IMG/VR virus record: IMGVR_UViG_3300037418_002133
Coordinates: 1 to 64,000 of that record
Strand: one strand, 5' to 3'
DNA length: 64,000 nucleotides
Origin: a virus
Made by a program: the position numbers and the translations under genes. Of this stretch, positions 9,956-64,000 are shown piece by piece (the stretch's first letter is position 1; each line of letters opens with the position of its first letter). The notes under the pieces are model-generated. The model was not told the origin of the DNA, searched no databases, and saw only the letters and a program-made list of their open reading frames with translations.

Positions 9956-10035
9956 TTCAGATTGTTCTCTGCGTTGTTAGTGAGACTATAGCGATTTCAT
10001 CGCGGAAAGCGGTCGGCAAAAGTCAGAACTGACAT

Positions 10036-15117: not shown

Positions 15118-16965
15118 CTAGCGGCGAAATTTGCCGTTCTGGAGCGTCAGGAGCGCGCGCTTGCCGTCCGGGTACTGCACGATCAGGGTTACGGCCCAGC
15201 CTGACGGCCCTTTATTGTAGCCGTGTTGCAGCTCCATCACGCCGGCGACGTAGACGCCGTCCTCGATCTGGGGCGAGTGCTTGTCGCCGATCGACATTTT
15301 GCGACCCATGCGCGCAAAGCCGGCAACAGTTCCCTTCGCGCCATTGGCGCCACGGAAGCCGTGATGACCGTGCTCGATGCCGTCGATGATGAAGGATTTG
15401 CCGTCATAGGCCCAGGACACGCCATGATCGAGCGCAGGACGAACGCGACGCACGGCGCATTCGAGCAGACTGAAATCGGGTGCGGATGAATAGGTGTCGC
15501 GAGCGCGAGCGATCTTCTTGCGCTGCTCGATCAGATCCCGTTCGAGCAGATTGCCGATATCGAAGTTTTTGCCGTCGCCGCGAAATCGGCCTTCGGTGAT
15601 ATAGCGGTCCAGCGCGATGTCGTGGTTCGCCTCGATGACCTTGATTTCGGTGCCGGATCGACGAATGGCGAGAAGATAGTCGGCCACCTCCTCGATCTCG
15701 GTCAGGACGTTGTCGCGACCGCGCCATGCCTGCTCGAAGTTGTGCAGGACGTCATCGGCGTGGTGATGATTGCGGGTCTCGTTGTCGAAGATGTCGTGCG
15801 CGGTGATAAATTCCGGATTGAGCACATCGACTAGGCAGTCCTTGGTCACCTTCTTGCCGGTTGTGATATCGATGCCGTAGATCGCCTTTGCGTTAGTTGG
15901 CGCCATCTTGGCGCGATGACTGTCCGGTGTCGTCAGCGCCTTGATGCGATGCTTGCCGCGAATGACCTTGCCGTCTGTAACATAGGCGTCGAGATCGTAG
16001 AAGTTGCCGTCCTTGTCCGCGGAAATGTGCCGGCAGAATATATTCCCATCCTTGTCGAATTCGACGATCACGGCGCCGAGAACGTGATGAAACACCGACT
16101 TGATGCCGGCCTTGCGGGGAATAACCTTCGGACGGGTGACAACGCCGGTTGTCATGACCTGGCGTGCCTGTTGGGTCGGATCGGTCGATGGCACGCTCTT
16201 GAGCTGGCGCTTGGCGTGGGGAAATACCGCCCACCTGCCCCGGCTATATGTCACCAAGTCTGTAATGGGACTCGACGCTGTTGGAATAATGTTCATTTCG
16301 CCGCAGAACACAAAGTCGTTGCCGATCTGCATCTGGCCGAAACACAGGTAGTCGACCAGCTCCTTGGCGTAGGATCGCGAGGTCGGATTGTTTTCGCTCC
16401 ACCATTGGGTCTCGTAGGTGCCAGGGCCGATCGCAATGGTGCCGCCGAGATCAGCCGCGTAAGCCTTGAGATTGCGCCAGAAACCCTCGTGAACCTCGGT
16501 GTCGTTCTGGGCGCAGGAGAAGATCATCGTCCTGTTGCGGGCACTCTTGATCGGGGCGACGCGCAGGGTGTCGGATAGCCAGGTCCGCGGCGTGCCCTCG
16601 ACCATTTCATAGGCGCCGCTGGAACGATTGTATCGGCGCGACAGAAAGCTCTCGACGACGATGGCTTCCGGATTGATCAGAGGGTAGTTGGTGTTCATCA
16701 CCAAGCCGGTGACCTCTTCCGCAAGAGATCGAGCGCGGGCGCGGGCATGATCCTGTGGAAGCGGCTTCTCAGCTTTCTCTTTGATGTGAACCTTATTGCG
16801 ATCAATCAGAGCCGGTTCCATCTTATGCGCCCGGTACATCGCCGCGCGTTCGCGAATTGTGCGCGGTGCGATCTTGAGTTTGATCGCTAATTCCGCCATA
16901 GACGGATATTTTTTGATGTTGTTGTAGGCTTTGGCGAAAGAAAGATAATCAGCCGAGGTCGTCAT
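15118..16965 (-). CDS. Large protein with N-terminal HTH-like region and C-terminal metallophosphoesterase-like domain
   Basis: DSH, HDIFD, ANHD, HGHHG, GDKHS motifs. Confidence 0.65.
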   Translation of the reverse strand: MTTSADYLSFAKAYNNIKKYPSMAELAIKLKIAPRTIRERAAMYRAHKMEPALIDRNKVHIKEKAEKPLPQDHARARARSLAEEVTGLVMNTNYPLINPEAIVVESFLSRRYNRSSGAYEMVEGTPRTWLSDTLRVAPIKSARNRTMIFSCAQNDTEVHEGFWRNLKAYAADLGGTIAIGPGTYETQWWSENNPTSRSYAKELVDYLCFGQMQIGNDFVFCGEMNIIPTASSPITDLVTYSRGRWAVFPHAKRQLKSVPSTDPTQQARQVMTTGVVTRPKVIPRKAGIKSVFHHVLGAVIVEFDKDGNIFCRHISADKDGNFYDLDAYVTDGKVIRGKHRIKALTTPDSHRAKMAPTNAKAIYGIDITTGKKVTKDCLVDVLNPEFITAHDIFDNETRNHHHADDVLHNFEQAWRGRDNVLTEIEEVADYLLAIRRSGTEIKVIEANHDIALDRYITEGRFRGDGKNFDIGNLLERDLIEQRKKIARARDTYSSAPDFSLLECAVRRVRPALDHGVSWAYDGKSFIIDGIEHGHHGFRGANGAKGTVAGFARMGRKMSIGDKHSPQIEDGVYVAGVMELQHGYNKGPSGWAVTLIVQYPDGKRALLTLQNGKFRR

Positions 16966-49347: not shown

Positions 49348-50619
49348 TTAAATGGACAAGCCCAGGATTTTGACCTTGCGGACCGGGAAATTGTACTCGA
49401 TGCAGTAGCCGACGGCGTCCGCCGGATGCTCGAAGCCCTGGCTCTTGTCGACCTGGTCTGTGCCTGGCTTGTAAATCGTCTGTTCAAACGCCGCGATGGT
49501 GTGCTTGCAGTTCTGGTCGACCTTCAGCCGCACAGTGCCGTCACCGTCCTTAAACATGCGATTAACGGCGTTGACGCGATCGGCGACGCGCGGGTGTTTA
49601 CGGTGATGCAGGATTCGCTCAAAACCCGCCTCACGCAGAATGTCGAGGTCCGACTTGCCGCGACCTTTGGTCGTGCCGGCGGCGCCAGCCGGGTCCGGGA
49701 AGATTGTCGAGGTCTTCATCCAGCGGAAATAGCGCCGGGCCAGCTCGTCGGATGCCTCCTGGGTGTTCGACGACGCCAGCACCGCCTCGTCGACGATCCA
49801 CACCTCGCCGTTCTTCTGCGGCTGCATGATGACGCAGGACATCGGGTCGATGTTGAAGTCCATGCCGATCCAGATCGGCAACTTCGGATTGAACTTGTAT
49901 TTGCCGACGTGAATCTGGCGATCGAAGGCGTAATAGACCCGCCCCGACATGGTCTCGAAGCTCGCCTCGAACTCCTGGCGGAACGACTTTTCGTCCATGT
50001 CGTGCCGCGCGGCCGCAATTTCCGATCGCGGAATGAACGGCGAGGTAATGGTCGGAAACTGCCAGCTTTTCCAGTCGTTTAGCTTCGCCCTGCCCTTCTT
50101 TGTGCGATAGACCTCGCCGCGCTGGCCCATGACGTAAACGTCGTGCAGCCAGTTGAACGCCTTTGGCGTGCCGATGATAATGGTCTCACCGGATTTATCC
50201 GCCAGCGCCGGGCGCAGAATCTTGAAATAGGTGTCGCGATCGATGTCCTGAGCCTCGTCGATGATCAGAAGGTTGAGGCCCATACCGCGCAGGCTGTCCG
50301 GATTGTCGGCGCCTTTCAGTTCGATCCTGGTGCCGTTGTGCAGCCGGATCTCCATGCGGGTCTGATTGTAGGATTCGACCCACGCGCGCGGGATCGCCTC
50401 CTTCAGATCGTCCCAGAGAATGCCGCGCGCCATCGCGTAGGTCGGCGCCACGTACCAGATGATCTGCTTCGGGATGCAGGCGCGCTTGCAGATGATCAGC
50501 TTGCTCAGGGCGGTCTTGCCCCAGCGTCGGCCGGCAACGACAACGCGGTTGCGGTGCGTGTCGGAGAAGACCGTGCGCTGGCCTTTGTGCATCTTGAGAA
50601 GGACGGCGGGGGCGCTCAT
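49348..50619 (-). CDS. terL: Terminase large subunit
   Basis: AGRRWGKT, YVAPT, LRG..IIDEAQ, GTPK, GMDFN. Confidence 0.95.
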   Translation of the reverse strand: MSAPAVLLKMHKGQRTVFSDTHRNRVVVAGRRWGKTALSKLIICKRACIPKQIIWYVAPTYAMARGILWDDLKEAIPRAWVESYNQTRMEIRLHNGTRIELKGADNPDSLRGMGLNLLIIDEAQDIDRDTYFKILRPALADKSGETIIIGTPKAFNWLHDVYVMGQRGEVYRTKKGRAKLNDWKSWQFPTITSPFIPRSEIAAARHDMDEKSFRQEFEASFETMSGRVYYAFDRQIHVGKYKFNPKLPIWIGMDFNIDPMSCVIMQPQKNGEVWIVDEAVLASSNTQEASDELARRYFRWMKTSTIFPDPAGAAGTTKGRGKSDLDILREAGFERILHHRKHPRVADRVNAVNRMFKDGDGTVRLKVDQNCKHTIAAFEQTIYKPGTDQVDKSQGFEHPADAVGYCIEYNFPVRKVKILGLSI

Positions 50620-51412: not shown

Positions 51413-51712
51413 TTAGTGGAGAGCTTCGCCATCTTCCGGAACTGGATCCGGCGTTGCCATGAAGACGGTAAATCCTTTTGTCGTTGGCGCGATCGTGGCG
51501 CTCCGGTTGCCGTGCCTGGTCGTGGCGATCATGCCGTGTCGCTCCAGCGCGCGCAGCGAACAGGTGATCGCCTGTTTACTGACCGGGCCGTATGACACGC
51601 CGGCACAAAGATCGTTGGTGGTGATCTCTACGCCGGTTGACGTTGCCTCGCAGATCAGCCGCATGATCTCGCGTTGTTTCCGGGAATTGGCAAATTCGTT
51701 TCGCGCCGGCAT
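51413..51712 (-). CDS. Winged-helix DNA-binding protein
   Basis: SKQAITCSLRALERHGMI...PTTKG. Confidence 0.75.
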   Translation of the reverse strand: MPARNEFANSRKQREIMRLICEATSTGVEITTNDLCAGVSYGPVSKQAITCSLRALERHGMIATTRHGNRSATIAPTTKGFTVFMATPDPVPEDGEALH

Positions 51713-52620
51713 TACTCGCCTCGGAACGGCGCGTTAGGCGCCTGTCGGTCGAATGCGGTAAGGGGAAGACGCTGGGGAATGGTGCCGTGACGATCCGGAT
51801 TGGTCCAGATGCCGTACATTGGCGAAGCCAGCACAATCTGCTGGAGCCCCTTAATGATAGTCCTTTCGGACATGGCGTCAACCCTGCCCTGTCCGCGGTC
51901 GCGATTGTTGCCAGTCTTCTCAAGCGCGGAATGGCGATAGTAGAAGTCCTTGCAGAGCTGCAACAAACGCTCGCGCTCGGCCGGCGGTTTGGCTTGCAGC
52001 TCGGCCAGGATTGCCTCGAAATCCTGCGGACTGCTCTCGAAATGGGTCCGGAAGAACTTCAGCCCGATCTCGTATTTGTTGGCGTTCAACGGGCGCACGA
52101 AGCGAAAGCCCGCCTTCTGGCCGAACAGATTGAACTTCGACATCGAGGACTGGATCTCCATGAAGGTGTTGCCCTCCATGCGCGAGACCAGGTTCATCAT
52201 CCGGTAGCCGCAGCCGATGCCGCGATACATGGTGTCCACGACGAACCGCGAGACCACACGGAAGTTCTTGTTGATGAACTTGTACCGATAGGTGTTGGTG
52301 ATCTTGGTGTCGCCGGCGCCAGGCTTGAGATTCTTGAACACCAGATGCCGCTCCTTGAGCAGCCCCTTCGGGTTGCCGGTGACCAGCACGCCAATGGTCT
52401 CGCCGAACAGCGTCAGTTTCCAGAAATGCGGCCCGATCGGCAGGTTTTCCGCCTTGTAGTGAAGATCGTGCAGCAGATTCCAGTCAGAAATGTCTCCCTT
52501 CTCGACAAACATGCTCTCAAGCAGCGGGAAACAGGGCGCCGGTGCGTCCACACGCTCTATCAGCGTATCATATGCGTCAGCACTCTCGGACGCACCGGTG
52601 AGCTTCTCTGCGAACGGCAT
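51712..52620 (-). CDS. GNAT-fold (Mom-like) acyltransferase
   Basis: LHY motif, SRFVVDTMYRGIGCG acyl-CoA binding motif, M.KFNLF..KAGF; ATG at 52620. Confidence 0.8.
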   Translation of the reverse strand: MPFAEKLTGASESADAYDTLIERVDAPAPCFPLLESMFVEKGDISDWNLLHDLHYKAENLPIGPHFWKLTLFGETIGVLVTGNPKGLLKERHLVFKNLKPGAGDTKITNTYRYKFINKNFRVVSRFVVDTMYRGIGCGYRMMNLVSRMEGNTFMEIQSSMSKFNLFGQKAGFRFVRPLNANKYEIGLKFFRTHFESSPQDFEAILAELQAKPPAERERLLQLCKDFYYRHSALEKTGNNRDRGQGRVDAMSERTIIKGLQQIVLASPMYGIWTNPDRHGTIPQRLPLTAFDRQAPNAPFRGE

Positions 52621-52622
52621 GG

Positions 52623-52928
52623 TCAGTCGACGATCTGCCAATCCTCGGCGAGAAGATCGGTCTGCGACGCGACCCACGGCACAACATCGCCTTGAGCGGT
52701 CTTCATGTCGATGTGACCGTGATACTGGATCTCGGTGCCTTCCGGGTAGATCCCCAGAAGCGGCGGGCGATTCACCTTGAAGGTCGAGCCACGCACCAGA
52801 AACAGGAACATGCCCTTGCCGTTCCAGCCGGCACGGGCGACGCGCGCTCCATCCTTGATCGCAACGAGGGCGCTGGAAAACGAAAAGCCACCCTGTCTGG
52901 TTCGCTGCGTCAAAACTTCTTCGGTCAT
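52623..52928 (-). CDS. DUF2829 / Tad2-family protein
   Basis: FSSAL.AIK.G.RVARAGWNGKGMF...PWVASQTDLLAEDW. Confidence 0.85.
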   Translation of the reverse strand: MTEEVLTQRTRQGGFSFSSALVAIKDGARVARAGWNGKGMFLFLVRGSTFKVNRPPLLGIYPEGTEIQYHGHIDMKTAQGDVVPWVASQTDLLAEDWQIVD

Positions 52929-53560
52929 TCTGTCTTCTCCAGTTCAACTTTCTCGCGGAAACGCTTTGTCACCTTCAATGAGGCGCCGATCTCATCCGCC
53001 AGATCGGTGTGGGTGGTCGCGACGATCAGGGTCTTGCCGAGACGCCGGGCGGTCTTCTGCATCGAATAGGCGACACACTTCGCGGTGACGCGGTCGAGCA
53101 CGGCGCCGAACTCGTCGGCAACCCAGACGTCGGCGCCCTTGTCCATCAGCATTGCCAGCTTCAGCCGGTAGCGCTGTCCGTCGGAGAGTTCATTCGGCTT
53201 GCGGATATAGATCCAGGCGTCGGAAATGCCGGCCTTCGCCAACAGATCGGCCGCTTCGGTCGTGGTGTCACCAACGCACTCGATCACCGGCTTGTCCGGC
53301 GCCTCTAGCGCGTTCAGATCGGCAACCTTGAGACCCTTCTCGATCATCTGGTCGCGCAATTCGCGCAGCAGCAGCGACTTGCCAGACCCGGATTGACCGG
53401 TGATGTAGACCACGTCGCCCTGCCTGACCTCGACTTCGAGATCGTCGTAGATCACGAAACGCTTGTCCGAGAGACCAAGTCCAAAGGCTTCGGCAACTTC
53501 CAGTACGCGCGGCGTGCGGTCGACCGACGAGCTGAAGGACTTGTTGACGAGGTATTTCAT
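52925..53560 (-). CDS. Soluble ABC-type ATPase
   Basis: GQSGSGKS, LSDGQ signature, VADEF, TTH; no permease nearby. Confidence 0.88.
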   Translation of the reverse strand: MKYLVNKSFSSSVDRTPRVLEVAEAFGLGLSDKRFVIYDDLEVEVRQGDVVYITGQSGSGKSLLLRELRDQMIEKGLKVADLNALEAPDKPVIECVGDTTTEAADLLAKAGISDAWIYIRKPNELSDGQRYRLKLAMLMDKGADVWVADEFGAVLDRVTAKCVAYSMQKTARRLGKTLIVATTHTDLADEIGASLKVTKRFREKVELEKTE

Positions 53561-53922
53561 GCGCCGGGATCCTCGGGATCGTCATCGACGCTTTCTTCTT
53601 CCTCAATCTCGGCCAGGCGATCGCGATAACCGTCGATTTCTTCGCGAATTTTCATCTTCACCGAGTCGACCGCAAGATTGACCATCGCCAGTTGCTCGAT
53701 GGAGGTATCCATGCGGCTGACCAGCGCGCAGATCGGATTGTTCTGGTGAAGACCGGCAATAACCAGATGCGTCAGATCACCGGTCTTGATGCGCTCAAGG
53801 ATGTCCTCGCACAGCGCCAGTGATGTCTTGTCGACTTTCGGCTTACTTGCTTCGGTCGGATCGGGCGCGACAAACGCCTTGCGGGTAAAGGCGTTGATGA
53901 CCTTTGGGCTGTCGTCGCTCAT
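53557..53922 (-). CDS. Hypothetical protein
   Basis: Coupled ORF with acidic tail. Confidence 0.6.
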   Translation of the reverse strand: MSDDSPKVINAFTRKAFVAPDPTEASKPKVDKTSLALCEDILERIKTGDLTHLVIAGLHQNNPICALVSRMDTSIEQLAMVNLAVDSVKMKIREEIDGYRDRLAEIEEEESVDDDPEDPGA

Positions 53923-54581
53923 GCTGCCTGCTCCAATACGAACAGCAGCGCGTCAACGCCGGTCTTGTCGACCTTTCCCTCGATAATGGTGAGCAATTCC
54001 CGGATCTTGCGGCTCTGCTCGACGGTAACGCGCTTGAAACCAAGCGCGTCGGAGACTGGCGCCGCGGAGTGATCGACTTCGGCTTCCTTCGCCGAATTCT
54101 CCTCTTTCTGCTTTTCAACCGCCGTGGTGATGTTATCGACGAACATGCCATCGTCGATATCGGCGAAATCCGAGGTCATTCGGGTGATCTCGCTCTCGTC
54201 GAAGCCGATCGTGTCCATGTCGAAGCCGTCCTCGGCCAGTTCGGTGAGGGCCTGCTGAAGCAATTCGGTGTCGTATTCGGTCGAGGCGACCTGATTGTCC
54301 GAGAGCCGCAAGGCGTCCGCCTCGGCTTCGGTGAGATCGTCGCGCACCACGACGGGAATCTGGGTCCAGCCCAGCGACAATGCGGCGAGCCGGCGCCCAT
54401 GACCGGTAATGATGGTGCCGTCGGGGCGAATGTTCAGAGGGTTGGCGACGCCGAATTTCTGGATCGACTTGGCGAGCTTGGCGACGTGAGCGTCCGGGTG
54501 CTTCTTGGCGTTCTTCGGATGCACGACCAACTTGTCGATCGGCCACAACACAACAGGTCGTTTGGAATCAATTGTCGTCAT
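53919..54581 (-). CDS. ParB/Srx N-terminal domain protein
   Basis: NAKKH..LAKSI..FG..IITGHGRRLAA, RLSDN. Confidence 0.88.
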   Translation of the reverse strand: MTTIDSKRPVVLWPIDKLVVHPKNAKKHPDAHVAKLAKSIQKFGVANPLNIRPDGTIITGHGRRLAALSLGWTQIPVVVRDDLTEAEADALRLSDNQVASTEYDTELLQQALTELAEDGFDMDTIGFDESEITRMTSDFADIDDGMFVDNITTAVEKQKEENSAKEAEVDHSAAPVSDALGFKRVTVEQSRKIRELLTIIEGKVDKTGVDALLFVLEQAA

Positions 54582-54753
54582 CGTCGTTCATTCCTGAATA
54601 AATCGCCATCAATTCGTCGTCGTTGAGTTCGCGATCCTTGAATTTCTGCTCGAAAAACTCGCCAGCGCCGCAGTTTAGGCATCGCCGGGTAATTCGCGTT
54701 TCGCTGAAAAACTTGCAGTCCCGGCATTCCGGATGGCGAGGCTTGACGTACAT
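54568..54753 (-). CDS. Small Zn-finger protein
   Basis: CRDC...CLNC. Confidence 0.6.
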   Translation of the reverse strand: MYVKPRHPECRDCKFFSETRITRRCLNCGAGEFFEQKFKDRELNDDELMAIYSGMNDDDDN

Positions 54754-55404
54754 TCAGTCCTCAACGGCTCCGAAAAGCTGATGCACGAGGGCATCGCCGG
54801 CGTTCGTGAGGTCATCCGATGCGTTGAAATTCTGGCGCTTTCGGATCTTGCTGATCAGTTCGGTGATCTTCTCGGCATCGCCGAGTGTCACCTTGAAGCG
54901 CATGATGGTGTGGGTCTTCGGTGCGCGCTCGGGTTTGGGTTCGTCCGGCGCGGGCGCCTCGTCATATCCCGTCAGATCGTCGAGTTCATCGAGCGCTATA
55001 CTAACGGAATTGAAGATATTGTTGATATCGGTCTCAGTGAACGGCAGGAATTCCTTAACATTCGCGCCCTCTTCCATACTCTCCAGCATTTCAGCGAGGC
55101 GAATGGTGTCGTCGGCGCCGTAACGGGCGTTATCAGCGAGCGAAATCTTCTTCGCCTTGTCGTCGTTGATGTCGCCGAGATTGAAGATTGGAACCTGTTT
55201 CAGTCCCGCCGCCTTCGCGGCTTGCCAGCGATGTTCGCCGCCGATGATCTCGTAGGGATGATCCTCATCGTTAGTTTCGCGCACCACGATCGGCTTGAAC
55301 AAGCCAAGCCGGCGGATCGATTCCGCCAGTTTCTCCTCGTTTTCCGGAGAGACGATGTTGATGTTGAAGCTGTTCGGCCGAAGCAGGTCGATATCGACCA
55401 TCAT
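54754..55404 (-). CDS. ParB/Srx domain protein (start approximate)
   Basis: PN.FN.N, PIVVR, IIGGEHRWQAA. Confidence 0.85.
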   Translation of the reverse strand: MMVDIDLLRPNSFNINIVSPENEEKLAESIRRLGLFKPIVVRETNDEDHPYEIIGGEHRWQAAKAAGLKQVPIFNLGDINDDKAKKISLADNARYGADDTIRLAEMLESMEEGANVKEFLPFTETDINNIFNSVSIALDELDDLTGYDEAPAPDEPKPERAPKTHTIMRFKVTLGDAEKITELISKIRKRQNFNASDDLTNAGDALVHQLFGAVED

Positions 55405-55486
55405 TTGAACTGGCACCGAAGCGAAAACCTTATATAAGTCAGAACTGACTTTTACATAACCACGAAGATTGGTCCTTTGCAAGCCC

Positions 55487-57079
55487 ATGCCTGAAACCAT
55501 TACCATTGCCAGCAATGCCGTCATCGCCAAGATCATCAACGCCACCAATCCGGTCAAGGATCTGGTGTCGCAATGTCTGAGCTATGTCGTTGAGGGCGCT
55601 GAATTTATGTCGGCGTTCGCAACGTCCGGCTGGGATGGGCGTTCGAGCTTCTTTGCACGGCGCACCTGTACGTTCCCGGCAGGCTTCGTGCATATGGTGC
55701 ATGGCGAACTCAAACGCGCCGGCTACGAGGTTCGCATCGTCAAGCGCCCCAATCCTTTGCCGCTCGGTCCGGAAAATCCGATCGTCGACGAGTTCGGCAA
55801 TGACGATCCCCGCTACGACTTTCAGCCTCGAACGCTGCGCCAGATCGAAAAACACGGGCGCGGCATCGTTCAGGTCGCAACGGGCGGCGGAAAAAGCAAG
55901 ATCGCCAAGCTGATCGCCATGCGTTACGGGCGCCCGACGCTGTTTCTGACCACGCGCGGCGTGCTGATGTACCAGATGAAGGACGCCTTCGAGCAGGATT
56001 GCAAGGTTCGCACCGGTGTCATTGGTGATGGTCACTGGGCGCCGACCAAAGGGTTCAACGTCGGCATGGTGCAGACCCTGGTGTCGCAGCTCGCCGAACC
56101 GGATCTCAACGCGGAGATTCGTGAAGTTCTGCGCCAGAACACCGAGAAGGGCGAGGGTCGAACCAAGGCGCAATGCACGGAACTGGGCAATCAGCGGTTC
56201 ACGCTCAAGACCAAGATTCGCGCCCGTGTCATCAAGTTCCTCGAAATGATGGAAGTGGTGATCGGCGAGGAAGCGCATGAAGCCGGCGGAAACTCCTATT
56301 ACGAGATCCTGAAATACTGCAAAAACGCCAATATCCGGGTTGCCCTGACCGCGACGCCGTTCATGCGCGAGAACATGCTCGACAATATGCGGCTGATGGC
56401 TGCATTCGGGCCGATTTTGATCAAGGTGTCGGAAAAGACGCTGATCGATCGCGGCATTCTGGCAAAGCCCTACTTCATGTATCGCTCGCCGGCGCCGCAT
56501 CCGAAGCTGCGCAAGACCTCGCCCTGGCAACGCGCCTACGAACTGGGTGTGGTCGAAGGGCCGCATCGCAATGCCGATATTGCCGCACTAGCCAAGACCG
56601 CGGCCAATCATGGTCTGTCGGTGCTTATTCTGGTTCAGCGCAAAAAGCACGGCCCCTTTCTGAAGAAGCTGCTGGAATCTCAAGGTTTGCGGGTCAAGCA
56701 AATTCAGGGCGAGAACGACCAGAACGAGCGCAAAAAGGCGCTGAACGATCTCGCGGCCGGACGCATCGACGTTCTGATCGGATCCACCATCGTCGATGTC
56801 GGCGTCGACGTGCCCTCGATCGGCATGGTCATTCTTGCTGGCGCCGGCAAGGCAGAGGTGGCGCTGCGTCAGCGCATCGGCCGCGGAATGCGCGCCAAGA
56901 AGGTTGGCCCGAACGTGGTGTTCATCGTCGATTTTACCGACGAATTGAACAAGCACCTGCGCGAGCACGCGAAACAACGCCGCGCCATCGTCGAAACAAC
57001 CGACGGCTTTGTGCAGGGCATTCTGCCAAAGGGCCAGGATTTTCCCTGGCACCTGTTCGCGAAAAAGAAAGCAGCGTGA
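55487..57079 (+). CDS. Superfamily 2 helicase
   Basis: ATGGGKS, EEAH, LTATP, GVDVP, QRIGRGMR. Confidence 0.92.
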   Translation: MPETITIASNAVIAKIINATNPVKDLVSQCLSYVVEGAEFMSAFATSGWDGRSSFFARRTCTFPAGFVHMVHGELKRAGYEVRIVKRPNPLPLGPENPIVDEFGNDDPRYDFQPRTLRQIEKHGRGIVQVATGGGKSKIAKLIAMRYGRPTLFLTTRGVLMYQMKDAFEQDCKVRTGVIGDGHWAPTKGFNVGMVQTLVSQLAEPDLNAEIREVLRQNTEKGEGRTKAQCTELGNQRFTLKTKIRARVIKFLEMMEVVIGEEAHEAGGNSYYEILKYCKNANIRVALTATPFMRENMLDNMRLMAAFGPILIKVSEKTLIDRGILAKPYFMYRSPAPHPKLRKTSPWQRAYELGVVEGPHRNADIAALAKTAANHGLSVLILVQRKKHGPFLKKLLESQGLRVKQIQGENDQNERKKALNDLAAGRIDVLIGSTIVDVGVDVPSIGMVILAGAGKAEVALRQRIGRGMRAKKVGPNVVFIVDFTDELNKHLREHAKQRRAIVETTDGFVQGILPKGQDFPWHLFAKKKAA

Positions 57080-59931: not shown

Positions 59932-60205
59932 AACCAAGGGCGTCAAAGTCCCCTCGCCTCCCCAGCGTCGCGGCATCATCGCCCAAGTCCCAACACCCGT
60001 CGCGGCGCCGGACAACCTGTCCAAGCCCAACTCCGGACTACAGGATATGAATTTCAAGATGTCGCCTGAATTTCATCGCGCCTTCAAAATCACCGCCTCG
60101 ATCCGCGGCATGGCGATGAAGGATTTGCTTGAAGCCTCGTTCCGATGCTGGGTAGAACATTACGGCGACGATCAAGCCAAAGCTCTCCTTCCTCCGAAAG
60201 AATGA
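59906..60205 (+). CDS. ParG/RHH-like partition partner
   Basis: Disordered N-terminus plus MNFKMSPEFHRAFKITA..GM.MKDLL. Confidence 0.7.
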   Translation: MSPASNGPETKGVKVPSPPQRRGIIAQVPTPVAAPDNLSKPNSGLQDMNFKMSPEFHRAFKITASIRGMAMKDLLEASFRCWVEHYGDDQAKALLPPKE

Positions 60206-60206
60206 C

Positions 60207-60437
60207 ATGCGTTCACTGATTTTGCTGTCCACGCTTCTGCTCGCCGGCTGCGGAGGTGGCTGGAATAGACTCGACCCGCCCCTGATTGATATGTCCGGCG
60301 TCGATCGCGCCAAGTACGACCAGGATCTCGCCTATTGCACCAAGCTCAAGGCGGAATCGACCTTCGTGGGCAATGCGCAGTTGATTAGCCGCTGCATGAC
60401 TGAACGCGGCTACCGGGTCACCAGCGCCAGAACGTAA
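60207..60437 (+). CDS. Small lipoprotein
   Basis: Lipobox LLAGC; C...CM.ERGY. Confidence 0.75.
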   Translation: MRSLILLSTLLLAGCGGGWNRLDPPLIDMSGVDRAKYDQDLAYCTKLKAESTFVGNAQLISRCMTERGYRVTSART

Positions 60438-60455
60438 ATCGATTTGAGGTTCACG

Positions 60456-60671
60456 ATGTCACTTCACGACGATCTCTTGCGAATGGCGCGTCTGGTTCAA
60501 AAGGACGAAGCGCGCATCGGCGTCTACTCTACCGGTGAGGTCATTGCTGTCGCGCTCATTCTCAATCGACCGGATCTGCTTCCACCCAGATACAGCAAGA
60601 TCCTCGAAGCGGTTGATCGGCTTGGCGAAGAGTGGTTCCAGGTCGCCATCCAGGTGCAGCGCGAACTCTAG
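60456..60671 (+). CDS. Hypothetical protein
   Basis: GAGG RBS plus ATG at 60456. Confidence 0.6.
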   Translation: MSLHDDLLRMARLVQKDEARIGVYSTGEVIAVALILNRPDLLPPRYSKILEAVDRLGEEWFQVAIQVQREL

Positions 60672-61160
60672 CCTGCGACAAGGTTAGGGCAATATTCCTA
60701 TTGGTGCGGGGATCCGGATGATGTATCCGGGAGTTGGCATGGGTCAATTCTTGTGACAAGGTTAGGACGGAAAAGCTGTCGAGGGGCCAGAAGGCAATGC
60801 CTTCGCTGCATCGCACAAAAACCTAAGACATCGCATCTGTTGCAATTATGCAACACACGACGCGTCCCGCGAAACGCGTGACATTTCCGCAACACAGCGT
60901 TTCTTGCGATTCTGTGTTTGTGCAGCGCACAATAAAATAAACACGATTTCGCATTGCAACATGCTATGCGCAAAATGCATAACACGATTTAGTTAAGTAG
61001 TGATAATTATGTCACACGTGCTGCTGCAACAAATCTGTAGCATGATCAAGTCACGAATTGTTACACTCTGTAACATCATGTGATTTGTTCGCGTTGCTGT
61101 AACACGTTATAACTTAGTCACGTTAGCAATGACGCTAACACTACAGAGTGAGAAACGACG

Positions 61161-61778
61161 ATGACGAAAGTTAATGACAAGATCGCGAACTACGTTGCAG
61201 AACTCAACAGCGCGCTTGACGCTCGCGCTTCGTATGAACACGACAAGAGCGCTGCGAACGACTCGATTCAGACGTGCATCGCAGCGCTTCGTAAGAGCGT
61301 CACACACGTCGATATTGCGAGCGTGCTACTCTCATGCGACGTCGATTCAAACTTCATCAATCGCAGCGAGCGTTCGAATAATCGTTATAACGTCTACGCT
61401 GCACAGAAAGTCGACAACGTCGCGCGCGCTGTCAAAAGCGTTGCAGAACTGAATCACTATTCGCTTGCGATCTTGCGCGTTGCGCTCGCTGTCGAAAAGA
61501 TCGACTCTAAGCTGTCGCACAAAGACGCTGTAGCAGCGTGCAGCGCGTCTGTGAAGCACAGCGACGCGAAGCGCGAATCAATCATCAAGTCGCTACGCTA
61601 CGCAAAGCACGTCGCTGCAAATACAGCGTCAACGCAATCGTCGTCGTCGATTAACGCGCTTCAAACGTGTCACATTCTGAGCGAAGCGCGCGATGCTGCG
61701 AACAACATCGTCTACAGCGTCAATCGCGAGAGCGAAGCGTTCAAGACGCTCGCGAAGAGATACGAACTCGCGATCTGA
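61161..61778 (+). CDS. 205-aa protein lacking Gly, Pro and Trp; possible C-terminal winged helix
   Basis: Intact ORF with GAGAAACGACG-ATG leader and downstream hairpin; fold is a guess. Confidence 0.8.
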   Translation: MTKVNDKIANYVAELNSALDARASYEHDKSAANDSIQTCIAALRKSVTHVDIASVLLSCDVDSNFINRSERSNNRYNVYAAQKVDNVARAVKSVAELNHYSLAILRVALAVEKIDSKLSHKDAVAACSASVKHSDAKRESIIKSLRYAKHVAANTASTQSSSSINALQTCHILSEARDAANNIVYSVNRESEAFKTLAKRYELAI

Positions 61779-61788
61779 CAACGCAATG

Positions 61789-61816
61789 CAGAGTGACGCT
61801 TCACAGCGTCACTCTG
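61789..61816. terminator. 12-bp hairpin after the island gene (terminator or processing site)
   Basis: CAGAGTGACGCT-tcac-AGCGTCACTCTG. Confidence 0.55.
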
Positions 61817-61880
61817 TAACATCACTTAATCAAGTCACCGCAAACACAGAGCTAGAACAATGCAGCATGAGAAACGACTA

Positions 61881-62045
61881 ATGAAGCAACGCGAATCAGC
61901 GCGCGTCGAAAAGTACAAGCGCGCGTTTGACTGCGACTCTGTTGACGCTGATTATCTATTCGACGACGTCGCACGCGACTGTGACGCGACGTTAGCAGCG
62001 ATCGAACTGCGAGAATCGATCACGCGCTACGCGATAGCGCACTAG
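61881..62045 (+). CDS. 54-aa acidic protein lacking Gly, Pro and Trp
   Basis: Same TGAGAAACGAC leader as 61161; ATG at 61881. Confidence 0.6.
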   Translation: MKQRESARVEKYKRAFDCDSVDADYLFDDVARDCDATLAAIELRESITRYAIAH

Positions 62046-62056
62046 ACGCGTGACAT

Positions 62057-62097
62057 AGTCGAAAGTCTATAGACGAAAGTTTATTAGACTTTCGACT
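62057..62097. repeat. 13-bp inverted repeat closing the island
   Basis: AGTCGAAAGTCTA...TAGACTTTCGACT. Confidence 0.8.
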
Positions 62098-62127
62098 GTG
62101 ACATTTAAGCCTCACTGTTGCTCTGAA

Positions 62128-62161
62128 GCCACTGTGGTATGCCCGCCACAGTGGCATTTTT
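62128..62161 (+). terminator. Rho-independent terminator
   Basis: GCCACTGTGG/CCACAGTGGC stem plus ATTTTT. Confidence 0.65.
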
Positions 62162-62169
62162 GCCACAGG

Positions 62170-62360
62170 CGAACCCCATGGGGAGGGTAAGGCAGACCTG
62201 AAATCCCAAGGATTTCAAGCGGTCTGCCGATCCCATGGATCCCACCGGTTCCTAATCCCATACCTAGTGACCGGTTCCCATGCCCATCCATGGCGATCGG
62301 TTCCGGACGCCAAAACCCATGGCAGGCTTCCTTGCCGGACAGGGCACCCATAGCAGGCGC
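62170..62360. repeat. CCATGG/CCGGTTCC-rich block 1
   Basis: CCATGG at 62176, 62233, 62288, 62317. Confidence 0.8.
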
Positions 62361-62380
62361 CCTCTCCTTTTGGCTGCTGG

Positions 62381-62548
62381 CTACTCCTCGGCTGTGCCAG
62401 GCACCATCCACACCGACGAGGAAGCCCCGTAGACGTCAGTACGACGAGCGAACATCGACGACATGCGAGCGATTTCCATGAGCTTGTTTATGCATCCGAA
62501 GCGCATAAGCCCAAACGTATTCAACTTGGGCTGATAGAGGATGATCAT
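62381..62548 (-). CDS. Small hypothetical protein
   Basis: GAGGA RBS plus ATG at 62548. Confidence 0.45.
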   Translation of the reverse strand: MIILYQPKLNTFGLMRFGCINKLMEIARMSSMFARRTDVYGASSSVWMVPGTAEE

Positions 62549-62558
62549 GGTGTTTTCC

Positions 62559-62630
62559 TCAGATGAAGAAGGCGGCGATGATGAAGGCCCCAACGATCAT
62601 GATGGGGTAGCTGATGAACTCGTCGAGCAT
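62559..62630 (-). CDS. 23-aa hydrophobic micropeptide MLDEFISYPIMIVGAFIIAAFFI
   Basis: ATG overlaps the upstream stop (TGATG); fills the gap between two genes. Confidence 0.55.
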   Translation of the reverse strand: MLDEFISYPIMIVGAFIIAAFFI

Positions 62631-62866
62631 CACTGGAACTCCACCGGTACGAAGCCGAGGCTGCGGCTGGCGTTCTCCAGGTGCGACCGGGCGATGTCGA
62701 GGGAATATATTCCGCTCTCGTCCTTGGAGATTTGCTTCACCGCAGCGTTGAGCCAGGTCAGGGCGTAGCGCAGGTGTTCCTCAGCGTCGGTATCGGCGAA
62801 GCGACCGATAGCGTTCAGGACGCTCATACGGGCGCGATTGACGAGTGCGAGGCGCTTGCTTCTCAT
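62630..62866 (-). CDS. Small hypothetical protein
   Basis: GGAG RBS. Confidence 0.6.
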   Translation of the reverse strand: MRSKRLALVNRARMSVLNAIGRFADTDAEEHLRYALTWLNAAVKQISKDESGIYSLDIARSHLENASRSLGFVPVEFQ

Positions 62867-63076
62867 TTTCGATCTCCGTGTTTGCTCAACACAAAGATCG
62901 TCGCATATCGCCTTGTGGGATGCGGTCGGGCGTATAAGGCGAGTTTATACGGCCTGGCGTTTACGGACCGGCCTGGCGATGGAAGACGGCCTGGCCGAGG
63001 ATGACCGGACCGGCCTGAAGCCCATGGAGCGCCATGCCTGCCCATGGAGGACCGAGGGATCTCTAAGGGCGCGTAA

Positions 63077-63110
63077 AACCCTATAGATATATAAATATAT
63101 CTATAGGGTT
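63077..63110. repeat. AT-rich palindrome with 16-bp arms
   Basis: AACCCTATAGATATAT-aa-ATATATCTATAGGGTT. Confidence 0.9.
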
Positions 63111-63123
63111 GGGATGCGAACGG

Positions 63124-63390
63124 CTACGCGAGGCAAAGCTCGCTGGACTGACGGGCTGCTTCTTCGATGCACAGCGCGACGAGGTGCTGGGCGTTGAAGG
63201 CTTTCTCGTGGAGCATCGCTTCGTTGATCGCGGGATCGATCTTGCTGATGGTCATTTCGTTGGTGTCGTAGTTGTAGGACGACGTGAACAGCACGGTATC
63301 TTTGTAGATCGCGCTGAAGGCGCATTCGGGGTTCATCGGGTGCGCGTCGTTGGAAAGCTCGATCTTGATGGTCTTGAGGGTGCTTTGCAT
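63124..63390 (-). CDS. 88-aa protein, GG-free coding strand (no Gly or Trp)
   Basis: GAGAG RBS; no CC on the + strand across the gene. Confidence 0.7.
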   Translation of the reverse strand: MQSTLKTIKIELSNDAHPMNPECAFSAIYKDTVLFTSSYNYDTNEMTISKIDPAINEAMLHEKAFNAQHLVALCIEEAARQSSELCLA

Positions 63391-63453
63391 GTTAGCTCTC
63401 GTTTGTGTGAACGTGAGAACTATCTCACGTTCACTTTTGGGATGCGAACGGGC

Positions 63454-63744
63454 TCAGACGGTCATGTCGAAGGAGATCTTCATGGTCTCGTCGACGATCA
63501 GCTTGCGGAGGGTTTCACTGGAGTTGCAGCGGTAGTAGACGCTGTCTCCCGCAGCAGCTTGCGCGTCGTTGGGATCGAACTCGCTGTCATGGAGCTGCGT
63601 GACGCGCACAGCGAAGCATTTGGTGTCGTCTTTGGCGATCGCGCACGCTTCGATGACGGTCCTTTGGTTCATGACGGAGAAGAAGCGCTCGCCTAAGTCT
63701 TGCGACATGAGGGAATCGAAAGTGGTTTTGTCGATCTGGTGCAT
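63454..63744 (-). CDS. 96-aa protein, GG-depleted coding strand
   Basis: GAGAG RBS, ATG at 63744, downstream of TATACT and the palindrome. Confidence 0.7.
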   Translation of the reverse strand: MHQIDKTTFDSLMSQDLGERFFSVMNQRTVIEACAIAKDDTKCFAVRVTQLHDSEFDPNDAQAAAGDSVYYRCNSSETLRKLIVDETMKISFDMTV

Positions 63745-63869
63745 GTTTTGCTCTCGCTGTGAAAATAAGTCAGTTCTGACATACGACAGTATAGCTAGGA
63801 ATGCGAGCGGCGGCTCGTGGTGCGTCCGTTGGGGTATCGAGCTGGGTCTGTAGCTTAGGAGCGCTAAGG

Positions 63870-64000
63870 ACGCACCATGGGGCTTCCCTAGCGATTTCCC
63901 ATGGGAAGCCATGGTTCGCCTCGGGACACCACGGCCGCGCCCTCTCCAAAAATCCGCCTTGGTTCGCCAATCGGTCGGTCCCATGGACCCCACCGGTTCC
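63870..64000. repeat. CCATGG-rich block 3
   Basis: CCATGG at 63875, 63899, 63909, 63981; 63979-64000 matches 62231-62252 at 21/22. Confidence 0.8.

Follow-up and report, generated by a model that had tools for sequence, protein, structure and literature searches.

A phage operon kept free of GG and CC dinucleotides at the cost of three amino acids

Why should a phage keep a whole two-gene operon clear of the dinucleotides GG and CC, when doing so denies its proteins glycine, proline and tryptophan? The question is raised by an island of about 1.2 kb near the end of the stretch of DNA studied here, the first 64 kb (hereafter the window) of a single 116,086-bp contig (genome G000 C1), recorded in IMG/VR as the virus IMGVR_UViG_3300037418_002133. 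A sequence-only reading of the window had already pointed out the island. It proposed that selection on DNA had overridden protein composition, as would be expected for a first-expressed cassette that has to stay invisible to something recognising GG or CC. As possible readers it named a bulky phage DNA modification that blocks transcription, a GG/CC-directed nuclease or modifier, and the protospacer-adjacent motifs (PAMs) of CRISPR systems (CC for type I-F, NGG for Cas9). As judged from comparison of the sequences, selection on the nucleic acid does keep the operon free of GG and CC and overrides the composition of its proteins, and the strand on which the two steps are forbidden narrows down what may be reading them.

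The island and its two genes are laid out as follows.

60794-62135 (1342 bp), plus strand: zone without GG on the sense strand; the neighbouring GG stand at 60793 and 62136
60888-62109, both strands: core island without GG or CC; the sole exception is an intergenic CC at 61838
61161-61778, plus strand: gene 1, 205 amino acids (aa), without Gly, Pro or Trp
61881-62045, plus strand: gene 2, 54 aa, without Gly, Pro or Trp

A letter scan of the window finds GG on the plus strand at 60793 and next at 62136, and CC near the island only at 60887, 61838 and 62110, in exact agreement with the boundaries given by the sequence-only reading. The second-longest GG gap of the genome is 151 bp, as against the 1342 bp of this zone. 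When both steps are counted, the two longest gaps of the 116,086-bp genome (951 and 272 bp) lie in the island and the third measures 84 bp, which is also the longest outside the island; the largest gap in 20 first-order Markov simulations of the genome was 113 bp. Base composition predicts 39-60 GG/CC per 400-bp window, and the odds ratio of the GG/CC step is 0.77 genome-wide. The GC content is 49.5% in 60795-62135 versus 56.8% in the genome. Among the ten DNA steps GG/CC alone is missing from the island, and CG and GC stand at 1.5-2.0 times expectation, as the earlier remark on their abundance had suggested.

The proteins bear the same stamp. Over the 259 residues of the 205-aa and 54-aa reading frames, the chance of finding no Gly, Pro or Trp is 2e-16 under the amino-acid usage of the genome, which bears out the earlier observation on both frames. 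In the codon-recoding control that the sequence-only reading had called for, the amino-acid sequence was fixed and codons were sampled from genome usage. The 205-aa frame then carried a mean of 53.9 GG/CC and a minimum of 31 in 5000 recodings, versus an actual count of 0; for the 54-aa frame the mean was 12.5, and the actual count again 0. Non-coding DNA follows suit: the three non-coding parts should hold 22.5, 11.1 and 4.6 GG/CC and hold 0, 1 and 0, so that a single step is found where about 38 are expected. The purge thus runs, as had been claimed, through the upstream region, codon junctions, hairpins and the GAGAAAC ribosome-binding site. Contigs from four other metagenome studies are identical to this stretch, with zero differences, and since four independent assemblies agree, an assembly error is excluded.

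To see whether such a trait is inherited or maintained, the relatives of the element have to be considered. The large open reading frames of the window encode a tape-measure protein, a lambda-J-like tail protein, a portal, a terminase and a T5 A1-like protein. The portal shares 50-53% identity with its counterparts in the Rhizobium phages RHEph10, RHph_N1_10, V1VFA-S and B1VFA, and 45-51% with those in Pseudomonas phage nickie and in SSU5, a phage-plasmid of Salmonella. By gene content and portal similarity, we assign the element to the siphoviruses related to SSU5, RHEph10 and nickie. The window also carries partition and replication genes (ParA with a ribbon-helix-helix partner, two ParB-like proteins and a helicase), and close relatives include a 117.7-kb non-mobilizable plasmid of Methylobacterium sp. 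AMS5 and a 109-kb contig of Faunimonas pinastri. The sequencing runs that contain the element come from rhizosphere and soil metagenomes. It is therefore a phage of soil Hyphomicrobiales and very probably a phage-plasmid, the latter assignment resting on the plasmid-form relatives together with the partition genes.

We compared 18 distinct related loci, namely four Rhizobium phages, nine IMG/VR loci (the Methylobacterium plasmid and the Faunimonas contig among them), four metagenome contigs and nickie. Islands of 0.45-1.7 kb that are free or nearly free of GG/CC are present at 15 of them: in all four Rhizobium phages, at seven of the nine IMG/VR loci, on three of the four metagenome contigs and in nickie. 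The longest stretch without GG/CC reaches 1531 bp in the Methylobacterium plasmid and 458 bp at locus L006. The nickie island measures at least 1075 bp up to its end at 105074, and the 184-aa gene inside it is devoid of Gly, Pro and Trp. Nearly all clusters in the protein family of gene 1 (70 clusters, 41-79% identity) are without these three residues; among about 15,000 residues in total, Gly occurs 19 times, Pro 17 times and Trp twice. These sequences have diverged too far for the trait to have been passively inherited. The purge is accordingly a conserved property of a phage lineage whose hosts span two bacterial classes.

The homolog comparison thus comes out on the side of the sequence-only reading, with the absence of GG/CC kept despite divergence in about 70 clusters and at most loci. 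Homologous loci of ordinary GG/CC content would speak against selection; the three exceptions to near-strict islands proved to be relaxed (L009), leaky (L010) and one-sided (L024). At L009, where the GC content is 67%, the gene has gone back to 0.58 of the background GG/CC through synonymous sites and codon junctions, and the rule can evidently be lost. Its protein, despite the GG/CC regained in the DNA, still has only 1 Pro and 2 Gly. Since the DNA has relaxed and the protein is still poor in Gly and Pro, the constraint lies on DNA or RNA and not on protein, as the idea of nucleic-acid selection overriding protein composition would have it.

The purge also has a definite anatomy.

60795-61160, plus strand: upstream regulatory region without GG and, from 60888 on, without CC; contains sigma-70-like promoter candidates
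61059-61075, plus strand: operator-like inverted repeat TGTTACA-N3-TGTAACA, found by repeat search
61122-61139, plus strand: operator-like inverted repeat GTTAGC-N6-GCTAAC, found by repeat search
61150-61156, plus strand: GAGAAAC, a GG-free stand-in for the Shine-Dalgarno sequence of gene 1, inside a repeated leader
61787-61818, plus strand: hairpin after gene 1, 14-bp stem without GG or CC, -23.8 kcal/mol, z -7.6
61869-61875, plus strand: GAGAAAC ahead of gene 2, from the sequence and repeat search
62050-62104, plus strand: long hairpin after gene 2 without GG or CC, -30.1 kcal/mol, z -7.0
62128-62161, plus strand: intrinsic terminator, 11-bp stem followed by a T run; GG and CC resume here

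The leader of gene 1 (61137-61159), which ends in GAGAAAC, is repeated ahead of gene 2, and all relatives have GAGAGA or GAGAAAC at the same Shine-Dalgarno place. A promoter scan of the upstream region, 270-370 bp in length, gave one 9/12 sigma-70-like match at 60979-61007, which is a candidate and not confidently the window's own promoter. In five relatives the start codon is preceded, at a distance of 50-70 bp, by a clear TTGAC(N)-N16/17-TAnnnT promoter whose -35 box or spacer contains the last GG/CC. At the other end, GG/CC resume exactly at the canonical terminator (62128-62155 without the last letters of the span listed above), which marks the end of the transcription unit. With its edges matched to promoter and terminator, the purged stretch corresponds to the transcribed unit, and we read the island as one complete transcription unit from a sigma-70-type promoter region to an intrinsic terminator. 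In the window and at L012, L013 and L002 the purge reaches 200-460 bp upstream of the start codon. No Rfam family matched 60000-64000. The island DNA had no match among phages, and its single match among plasmids was a 97-bp segment of the Methylobacterium sp. AMS5 plasmid.

Which strand, then, is under constraint? The leaky and one-sided loci are informative here, together with a second zone in the window itself.

63081-63547, genes on the minus strand: second one-strand zone; the plus strand has no CC for 468 bp and about 37 GG

In Markov simulations the longest CC gap averaged 167 bp and was at most 264 bp, as against the 468 bp of this zone. Its genes, at 63124-63390 and in the 3' part of 63454-63993, lie on the minus strand, which means that their mRNA has no GG and their template strand no CC. 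The same ban on sense-strand GG alone is seen in a neighbouring gene at L010 (4880-5368). At L024, whose protein is 70% identical to that of the window, the gene has 5 GG versus 32 CC on the sense strand, the CC mostly in NCC codons. The strictest rule is thus the absence of GG from the sense strand, that is, of CC from the template strand, and a weaker second rule is the absence of CC from the sense strand, a ban seen only in the strictest units. The exceptions within strict islands, 11 GG versus 18 CC (8 versus 10 without L010), have no strand skew, and it is thus L024, L010 and the second zone that carry the strand ranking. At the edge of that zone, 63077-63110 forms a perfect 16-bp inverted repeat with a 2-bp centre (AACCCTATAGATATAT / ATATATCTATAGGGTT).

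The island at L010 tells us about sequence context as well. It is a leaky island of 2.2 kb with 27 CC/GG steps, counted as CC on both strands, of which 22 occur as ACCR and 3 as TCCG; GCCN and CCCN together are absent versus about 238 expected. An exception of this kind means that the reader sees sequence context and that its specificity differs between lineages, from which we infer a sequence-specific, evolving protein.

Taken together, the sequence comparisons imply that some factor must read a two-base word, in a strand-dependent manner, during gene expression. What remains is a factor acting on the template strand during transcription or a factor reading the mRNA. Phages of Alpha- and Gammaproteobacteria share the banned word, which makes a phage-borne reader more likely than a host-borne one. 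A purely physical origin, in guanine oxidation at GG or in A-form DNA, was considered and rejected, for the L010 lineage has its context-specific exception; reading at the level of tRNAs or codons was likewise rejected, the purge being independent of the reading frame and covering non-coding DNA.

The product of gene 1 is itself a candidate actor in early transcription. Its family comprises about 70 clusters at 41-79% identity and conserves FINRxER, LNHY and NTASTQSSSSINALQ. The structure prediction that had been suggested for it gave an AlphaFold2 model with a predicted local distance difference test score (pLDDT) of 95.2 and a predicted template-modelling score of 0.90. In this model an N-terminal helical part is followed by a C-terminal winged-helix domain at residues ~85-202, where a three-helix bundle leads into a beta-hairpin wing. 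With VIA-align, all of the top 50 matches to residues ~85-202 hold a winged-helix-type domain (Z 6.9-7.9, root-mean-square deviation 2-3.5 Å); they are mostly MarR, ArsR, MecI and Fur regulators and histone H1/H5. Z values below 8 are modest, and VIA-align therefore supports the winged-helix fold only. A Foldseek search of the Protein Data Bank (PDB) returned nothing at E <= 0.001 (best E about 0.1 or worse), and a search of BFVD returned two uncharacterised phage proteins. Neither island protein matched Pfam at E <= 0.01 or PHROGs at E <= 0.001, which leaves gene 1 outside named families such as MarR and ArsR. On the strength of the predicted fold, gene 1 appears to encode a conserved winged-helix DNA-binding protein, and in the model the invariant Ser-rich motif of the family is the putative recognition helix. 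The position of gene 2 is occupied by different small genes in related islands. A paralogue of gene 1 with normal composition, Gly and Pro included, lies just past the window end at ~64094-64744 on the minus strand (L018 6095-6745). It shares 32% identity with the island protein and 40% with the normal V1VFA-S paralogue, and it is convergent with the island gene; normal-composition paralogues also occur in Rhizobium phages (P0075).

The rest of the genome seems to use a different kind of promoter. A phage-specific promoter-like class, CC-N9-CC-N11/12-GCTATA, has 11 strict copies in the genome versus about 0 in simulated genomes; 10 of the 11 are on the minus strand, for example at 10016, and relaxed copies occur at 62915-62929, 63109-63123, 63437-63451 and 63796-63810. 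The spacing of this class is wrong for a sigma-70 -35 box and hints at an activator or at the phage sigma factor. The island promoter cannot belong to the CC-N9-CC class. Sigma-70-like promoters unlike the phage's own class, together with the terminator, are consistent with the island being a first-expressed cassette, which makes that part of the original proposal plausible on sequence grounds.

Directly downstream of the island the composition swings to the opposite extreme.

62170-62400, no strand assigned: cluster of CC/GG-rich repeats of the CCCATGG type; a second cluster lies at ~63870-64000

Of the 14 CCCATGG heptamers in the window, 10 fall within 62175-63986, in two groups that flank minus-strand small genes. 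These clusters may serve in partition or replication, or the winged-helix family may bind them. In nickie, CC-rich repeats (CCCCTTACACAACC) stand at the matching place after the island.

Some further features of the element and its relatives may be recorded here. The homolog of the T5 A1 'DNA transfer protein' (15121-16965, minus strand; phrog_1745, E 1e-154) sits in a genome with lambda-like tail and plasmid partition genes, and its counterpart in RHph_N1_10 is annotated 'A1 protein'. The contig ends (1-150 and 115937-116086) repeat about 150 bp, as in a circular assembly or with short terminal repeats. In V1VFA-S (L001 7149-7385), genes for tRNA-Met and tRNA-Asn lie ~250 bp from the island; nickie has the same pair at 1267-1428, ~8.5 kb from its island across the record ends. 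No tRNA genes were found in 58000-70000 of the window's genome.

What might mark or read CC in a phage of this kind? A candidate lies 5 kb from the island, in a group of genes beside the terminase.

51712-55557, minus strand: candidate marking module adjoining the terminase, assigned from Pfam, PHROGs, homolog names and a predicted fold
54754-55557, minus strand: ParB-like protein (Pfam ParB_N)
53919-54581, minus strand: ParB-like protein (Pfam ParB_N)
52925-53560, minus strand: ABC-type ATPase (Pfam ABC_tran, E 1.6e-12; phrog_293)
within 51712-52947, minus strand: GNAT-fold protein of the COG2401 type, true protein ~300 aa, assigned from a predicted structure
49348-50619, strand not stated: large terminase subunit, beside the module

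The gene set has the hallmarks of a COG2401-type module, namely a soluble ABC-type ATPase, a GNAT-fold partner and ParB-like partners near packaging genes. The 411-aa open reading frame of the GNAT protein gave nothing by Pfam or PDB sequence search, and in the ESM Atlas it yielded only a weak lead to GNAT; the fold is visible only in predicted structure. The predicted structure of an 85%-identical homolog (pLDDT 76.9) matched only GNAT acetyltransferases (Foldseek probability 1.0, E 4e-4 to 4e-3), among them the cytidine acetyltransferases NAT10 and TmcA, and homologs carry the JGI name 'ABC-type ATPase with predicted acetyltransferase domain'. The GNAT gene is present in all five complete island-bearing relatives tested and is annotated in nickie, where the module has the same gene order beside the packaging genes. 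A pair of GNAT and ABC ATPase proteins has been predicted to acylate a DNA base, a prediction restated in a comparative genomics study of jumbo phages (PMC7824862). Furthermore, ParB-dependent phage DNA-modifying enzymes with two- or three-base specificity (NTC, NTG) have been shown experimentally (PMC13229309).

Among the readers named by the sequence-only reading, a phage DNA modification that hinders transcription is thus the best candidate, with such a module only 5 kb away, and the nucleases and PAMs are the part that has lost ground. The virion DNA would probably be covalently marked on the cytosines of CC, the likely source of the mark being the phage's own ParB, ABC ATPase and GNAT proteins near the packaging genes, and the mark itself possibly an N-acyl group, by analogy with ATPase-coupled cytidine acetyltransferases. 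On the template strand the mark would hinder the unmodified host RNA polymerase, and on the non-template strand it would hinder it less. Genes that are read first from incoming DNA would then have lost the marked word, at the cost of three amino acids and the canonical Shine-Dalgarno sequence. More speculatively, the early winged-helix protein may redirect transcription to the phage CC-N9-CC promoters. A single agent acting on the CC-bearing strand would account for both the sense-GG rule and the weaker sense-CC rule. That the ParB/ABC-ATPase/GNAT module marks cytosines in CC, and that the early operon must for this reason stay mark-free, is the explanation to which we tentatively incline, well aware that it could prove wrong; the link from the module to the banned word is one that we infer. 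Its more sweeping version, in which ATP-dependent acyl marks on CC throughout the genome make it unreadable to a naive host polymerase, the mark-free operon starts the infection and the winged-helix product then opens the genome, we consider doubtful, if worth stating.

Several points weigh against marking by the module. The mark is deduced from assembled contigs, and the activity, target base and sequence preference of the module are putative. SSU5 also carries such a module, yet the first 100 kb of its 103-kb record contain no strict GG/CC-free island. At 95250-97000 of that record (NC_018843.1; L023), an AT-rich segment of minus-strand genes, AGG occurs on the plus strand 2 times versus 22 expected, perhaps as a milder form of the trait, perhaps because another word is banned there. 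The model also leaves unexplained how the GG/CC-rich replication genes come to be expressed. Major-groove marks such as glucosyl-hydroxymethylcytosine in T4 and the Mom adenine mark in Mu are not known to stop RNA polymerase. Moreover, in four loci including the window the purge takes in 200-460 bp ahead of the start codon, DNA that may not be transcribed.

The word may instead be read in RNA. T4 RegB cuts GGAG in early mRNAs and vertebrate ZAP reads CpG, and by analogy an early nuclease or RNA-binding factor, whether part of a phage host shut-off or common to the hosts, could read GG, and weakly CC, in single-stranded mRNA, and the messages that need to persist would avoid the word. Such a factor would suit a purge that matches the transcribed stretch, from near the -10 box to the terminator, a strictest rule that amounts to no GG in the mRNA, and a Shine-Dalgarno sequence that lacks GG even though GG would aid translation. 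It fits less well with the sense-strand CC ban of strict islands, which demands a second reader or reason, and with the long purged stretch ahead of the start codon in the window and at L012, L013 and L002, which includes operator-like palindromes that are perhaps untranscribed. Later phage genes, full of GG, would be cut too unless the factor acts briefly, and no candidate nuclease was identified. We hold reading in the mRNA to be unlikely, though by no means negligible. Another thought is that the island's winged-helix family, or the factor of the CC-N9-CC promoters, binds CC sites in one orientation and blocks the polymerase, so that its own operon avoids those sites. The winged-helix product of gene 1 does have a putative recognition helix that is invariant, a normal-composition paralogue exists at about 64094-64744 on the minus strand and in the Rhizobium phages, and the two invariant CC of the phage promoters lie 11 bp apart on one strand, so that oriented binding could produce a strand effect. 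The recognition helix, however, varies greatly (types P0005, P0001 and P0002, and nickie gp019) under a banned word that is constantly GG/CC; L010 has the window's helix and yet tolerates ACCR; and one defined binding site could be avoided without purging every GG and CC. A roadblock of this sort seems improbable.

The nucleases, modifiers and PAMs among the candidates of the sequence-only reading lead to evasion of host defences, with an island that, like the first-step-transfer DNA of T5 or the leading end of T7, enters or acts before the rest of the genome and lacks the word of a host nuclease, modifier or PAM (CC for type I-F, NGG for Cas9). T5-like genes are indeed present, including the A1-like gene at 15121-16965, and the small genes of the island vary between relatives, as is typical of anti-defence genes. 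But host defences vary by strain, whereas phages whose hosts are unrelated all shun this one dinucleotide; the ban is shared by Rhizobium, Methylobacterium, Faunimonas and Pseudomonas phages. Recognition of double-stranded DNA or of a PAM ought to ignore the direction of transcription, which the ban follows, and neither a CC nor an NGG PAM has an ACCR exception. As for A1, its homolog is found away from the island, and the examined parts of the nickie record have no annotation of one. The elements also live as plasmids (including L013 and L014), with the whole genome in the cell. A ban that is strand-ranked, shared across lineages and context-specific therefore disfavours restriction enzymes and CRISPR PAMs, and we judge evasion at first entry to be quite improbable. 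An origin without selection, through assembly error or hypermutation by a CC-preferring cytosine deaminase, finds some comfort in the GC content of the island, which is ~7 points lower, roughly as if all GG/CC had been converted. It has to contend with four independent identical assemblies, with frames that are intact and conserved and a predicted structure of pLDDT 95, with CG and GC that are raised, contrary to deamination, with the persistence of the trait down to ~40% protein identity, and with edges that coincide with promoter and terminator. We find this origin hardly credible. A small but not trivial share is left to an explanation not yet thought of.

It is very unusual for a conserved protein family to lose three amino acids and its normal ribosome-binding site to a rule on DNA. 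The island works as a built-in negative control that points to the reader, and the differences between lineages, whether strict, ACCR-tolerant, GG-only or relaxed, offer a route to mapping the reader's specificity. Furthermore, the long-standing prediction of DNA acylation by GNAT/ABC pairs becomes directly testable in culturable Rhizobium and Pseudomonas syringae phages. If the module does mark the DNA, it would represent a new DNA modification and a new timing of phage gene expression, and the signature could reveal immediate-early genes and modification motifs of uncultured phages from sequence. If the whole genome carries acyl marks, the island proteins would be natural 17-amino-acid proteins imposed by a DNA-level rule.

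Among known systems, the pre-early first-step-transfer DNA of T5 and the early region of T7, whose entry is driven by transcription, are alike in being a small first-acting block kept without attackable words, and this phage group shares some T5-like genes (A1-like). In contrast to T5, the island proteins are not homologs of A1, A2 or dmp by Pfam and PHROGs, and the A1-like gene is 44 kb away. The island bans a dinucleotide and not specific restriction sites, its ban depends on the transcribed strand, and the elements persist as plasmids. The island is known from a circular contig, and a place at a first-entering genome end would be conjectural. Avoidance of restriction sites and PAMs is similar in that selection removes a short word recognised by a sequence-reading protein. 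In its known forms such avoidance is genome-wide, statistical and strand-symmetric and concerns words of 4-8 bp (or PAMs anywhere), whereas the island is completely purged of a 2-bp step over ~1.2 kb, pays for this with three amino acids and the Shine-Dalgarno sequence, and follows transcriptional polarity. Depletion is neither strand-symmetric, as 63081-63547, L010 4880-5368 and L024 testify, nor genome-wide, given the odds ratio of 0.77 and gaps of at most 84 bp outside the island.

The suppression of CpG and UpA in vertebrate RNA viruses (ZAP, RNase L) offers a likeness of another sort, for there too a dinucleotide is read by a defence factor and codon usage is reshaped. It differs in being eukaryotic, RNA-level, genome-wide and partial, with no amino acids lost, and no bacterial or phage counterpart is described in the searchable literature. 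Closer to the proposed mechanism stand the COG2401-type GNAT/ABC modules and the ParB-dependent enzymes, since the window carries such a module beside its terminase. T4 Alc stops transcription on cytosine DNA and not on DNA containing hydroxymethylcytosine (PMC7824862), an instance of elongation that depends on the state of template cytosines. In T4, however, the modified DNA is the permitted template, whereas in our proposal the permitted unit would be the one that cannot be marked; no Alc homolog turned up here, no search having been aimed at one. We found no description of a dinucleotide-free gene unit or operon in a phage in the searchable literature. Thus, the logic of avoiding a word that is read is already known from restriction-site avoidance, from T5 first-step transfer and from CpG avoidance in vertebrate viruses; what is new here is that the purge is complete and local, that it costs part of the amino-acid alphabet, that it is ranked by the transcribed strand, and that it points to an uncharacterised reader.

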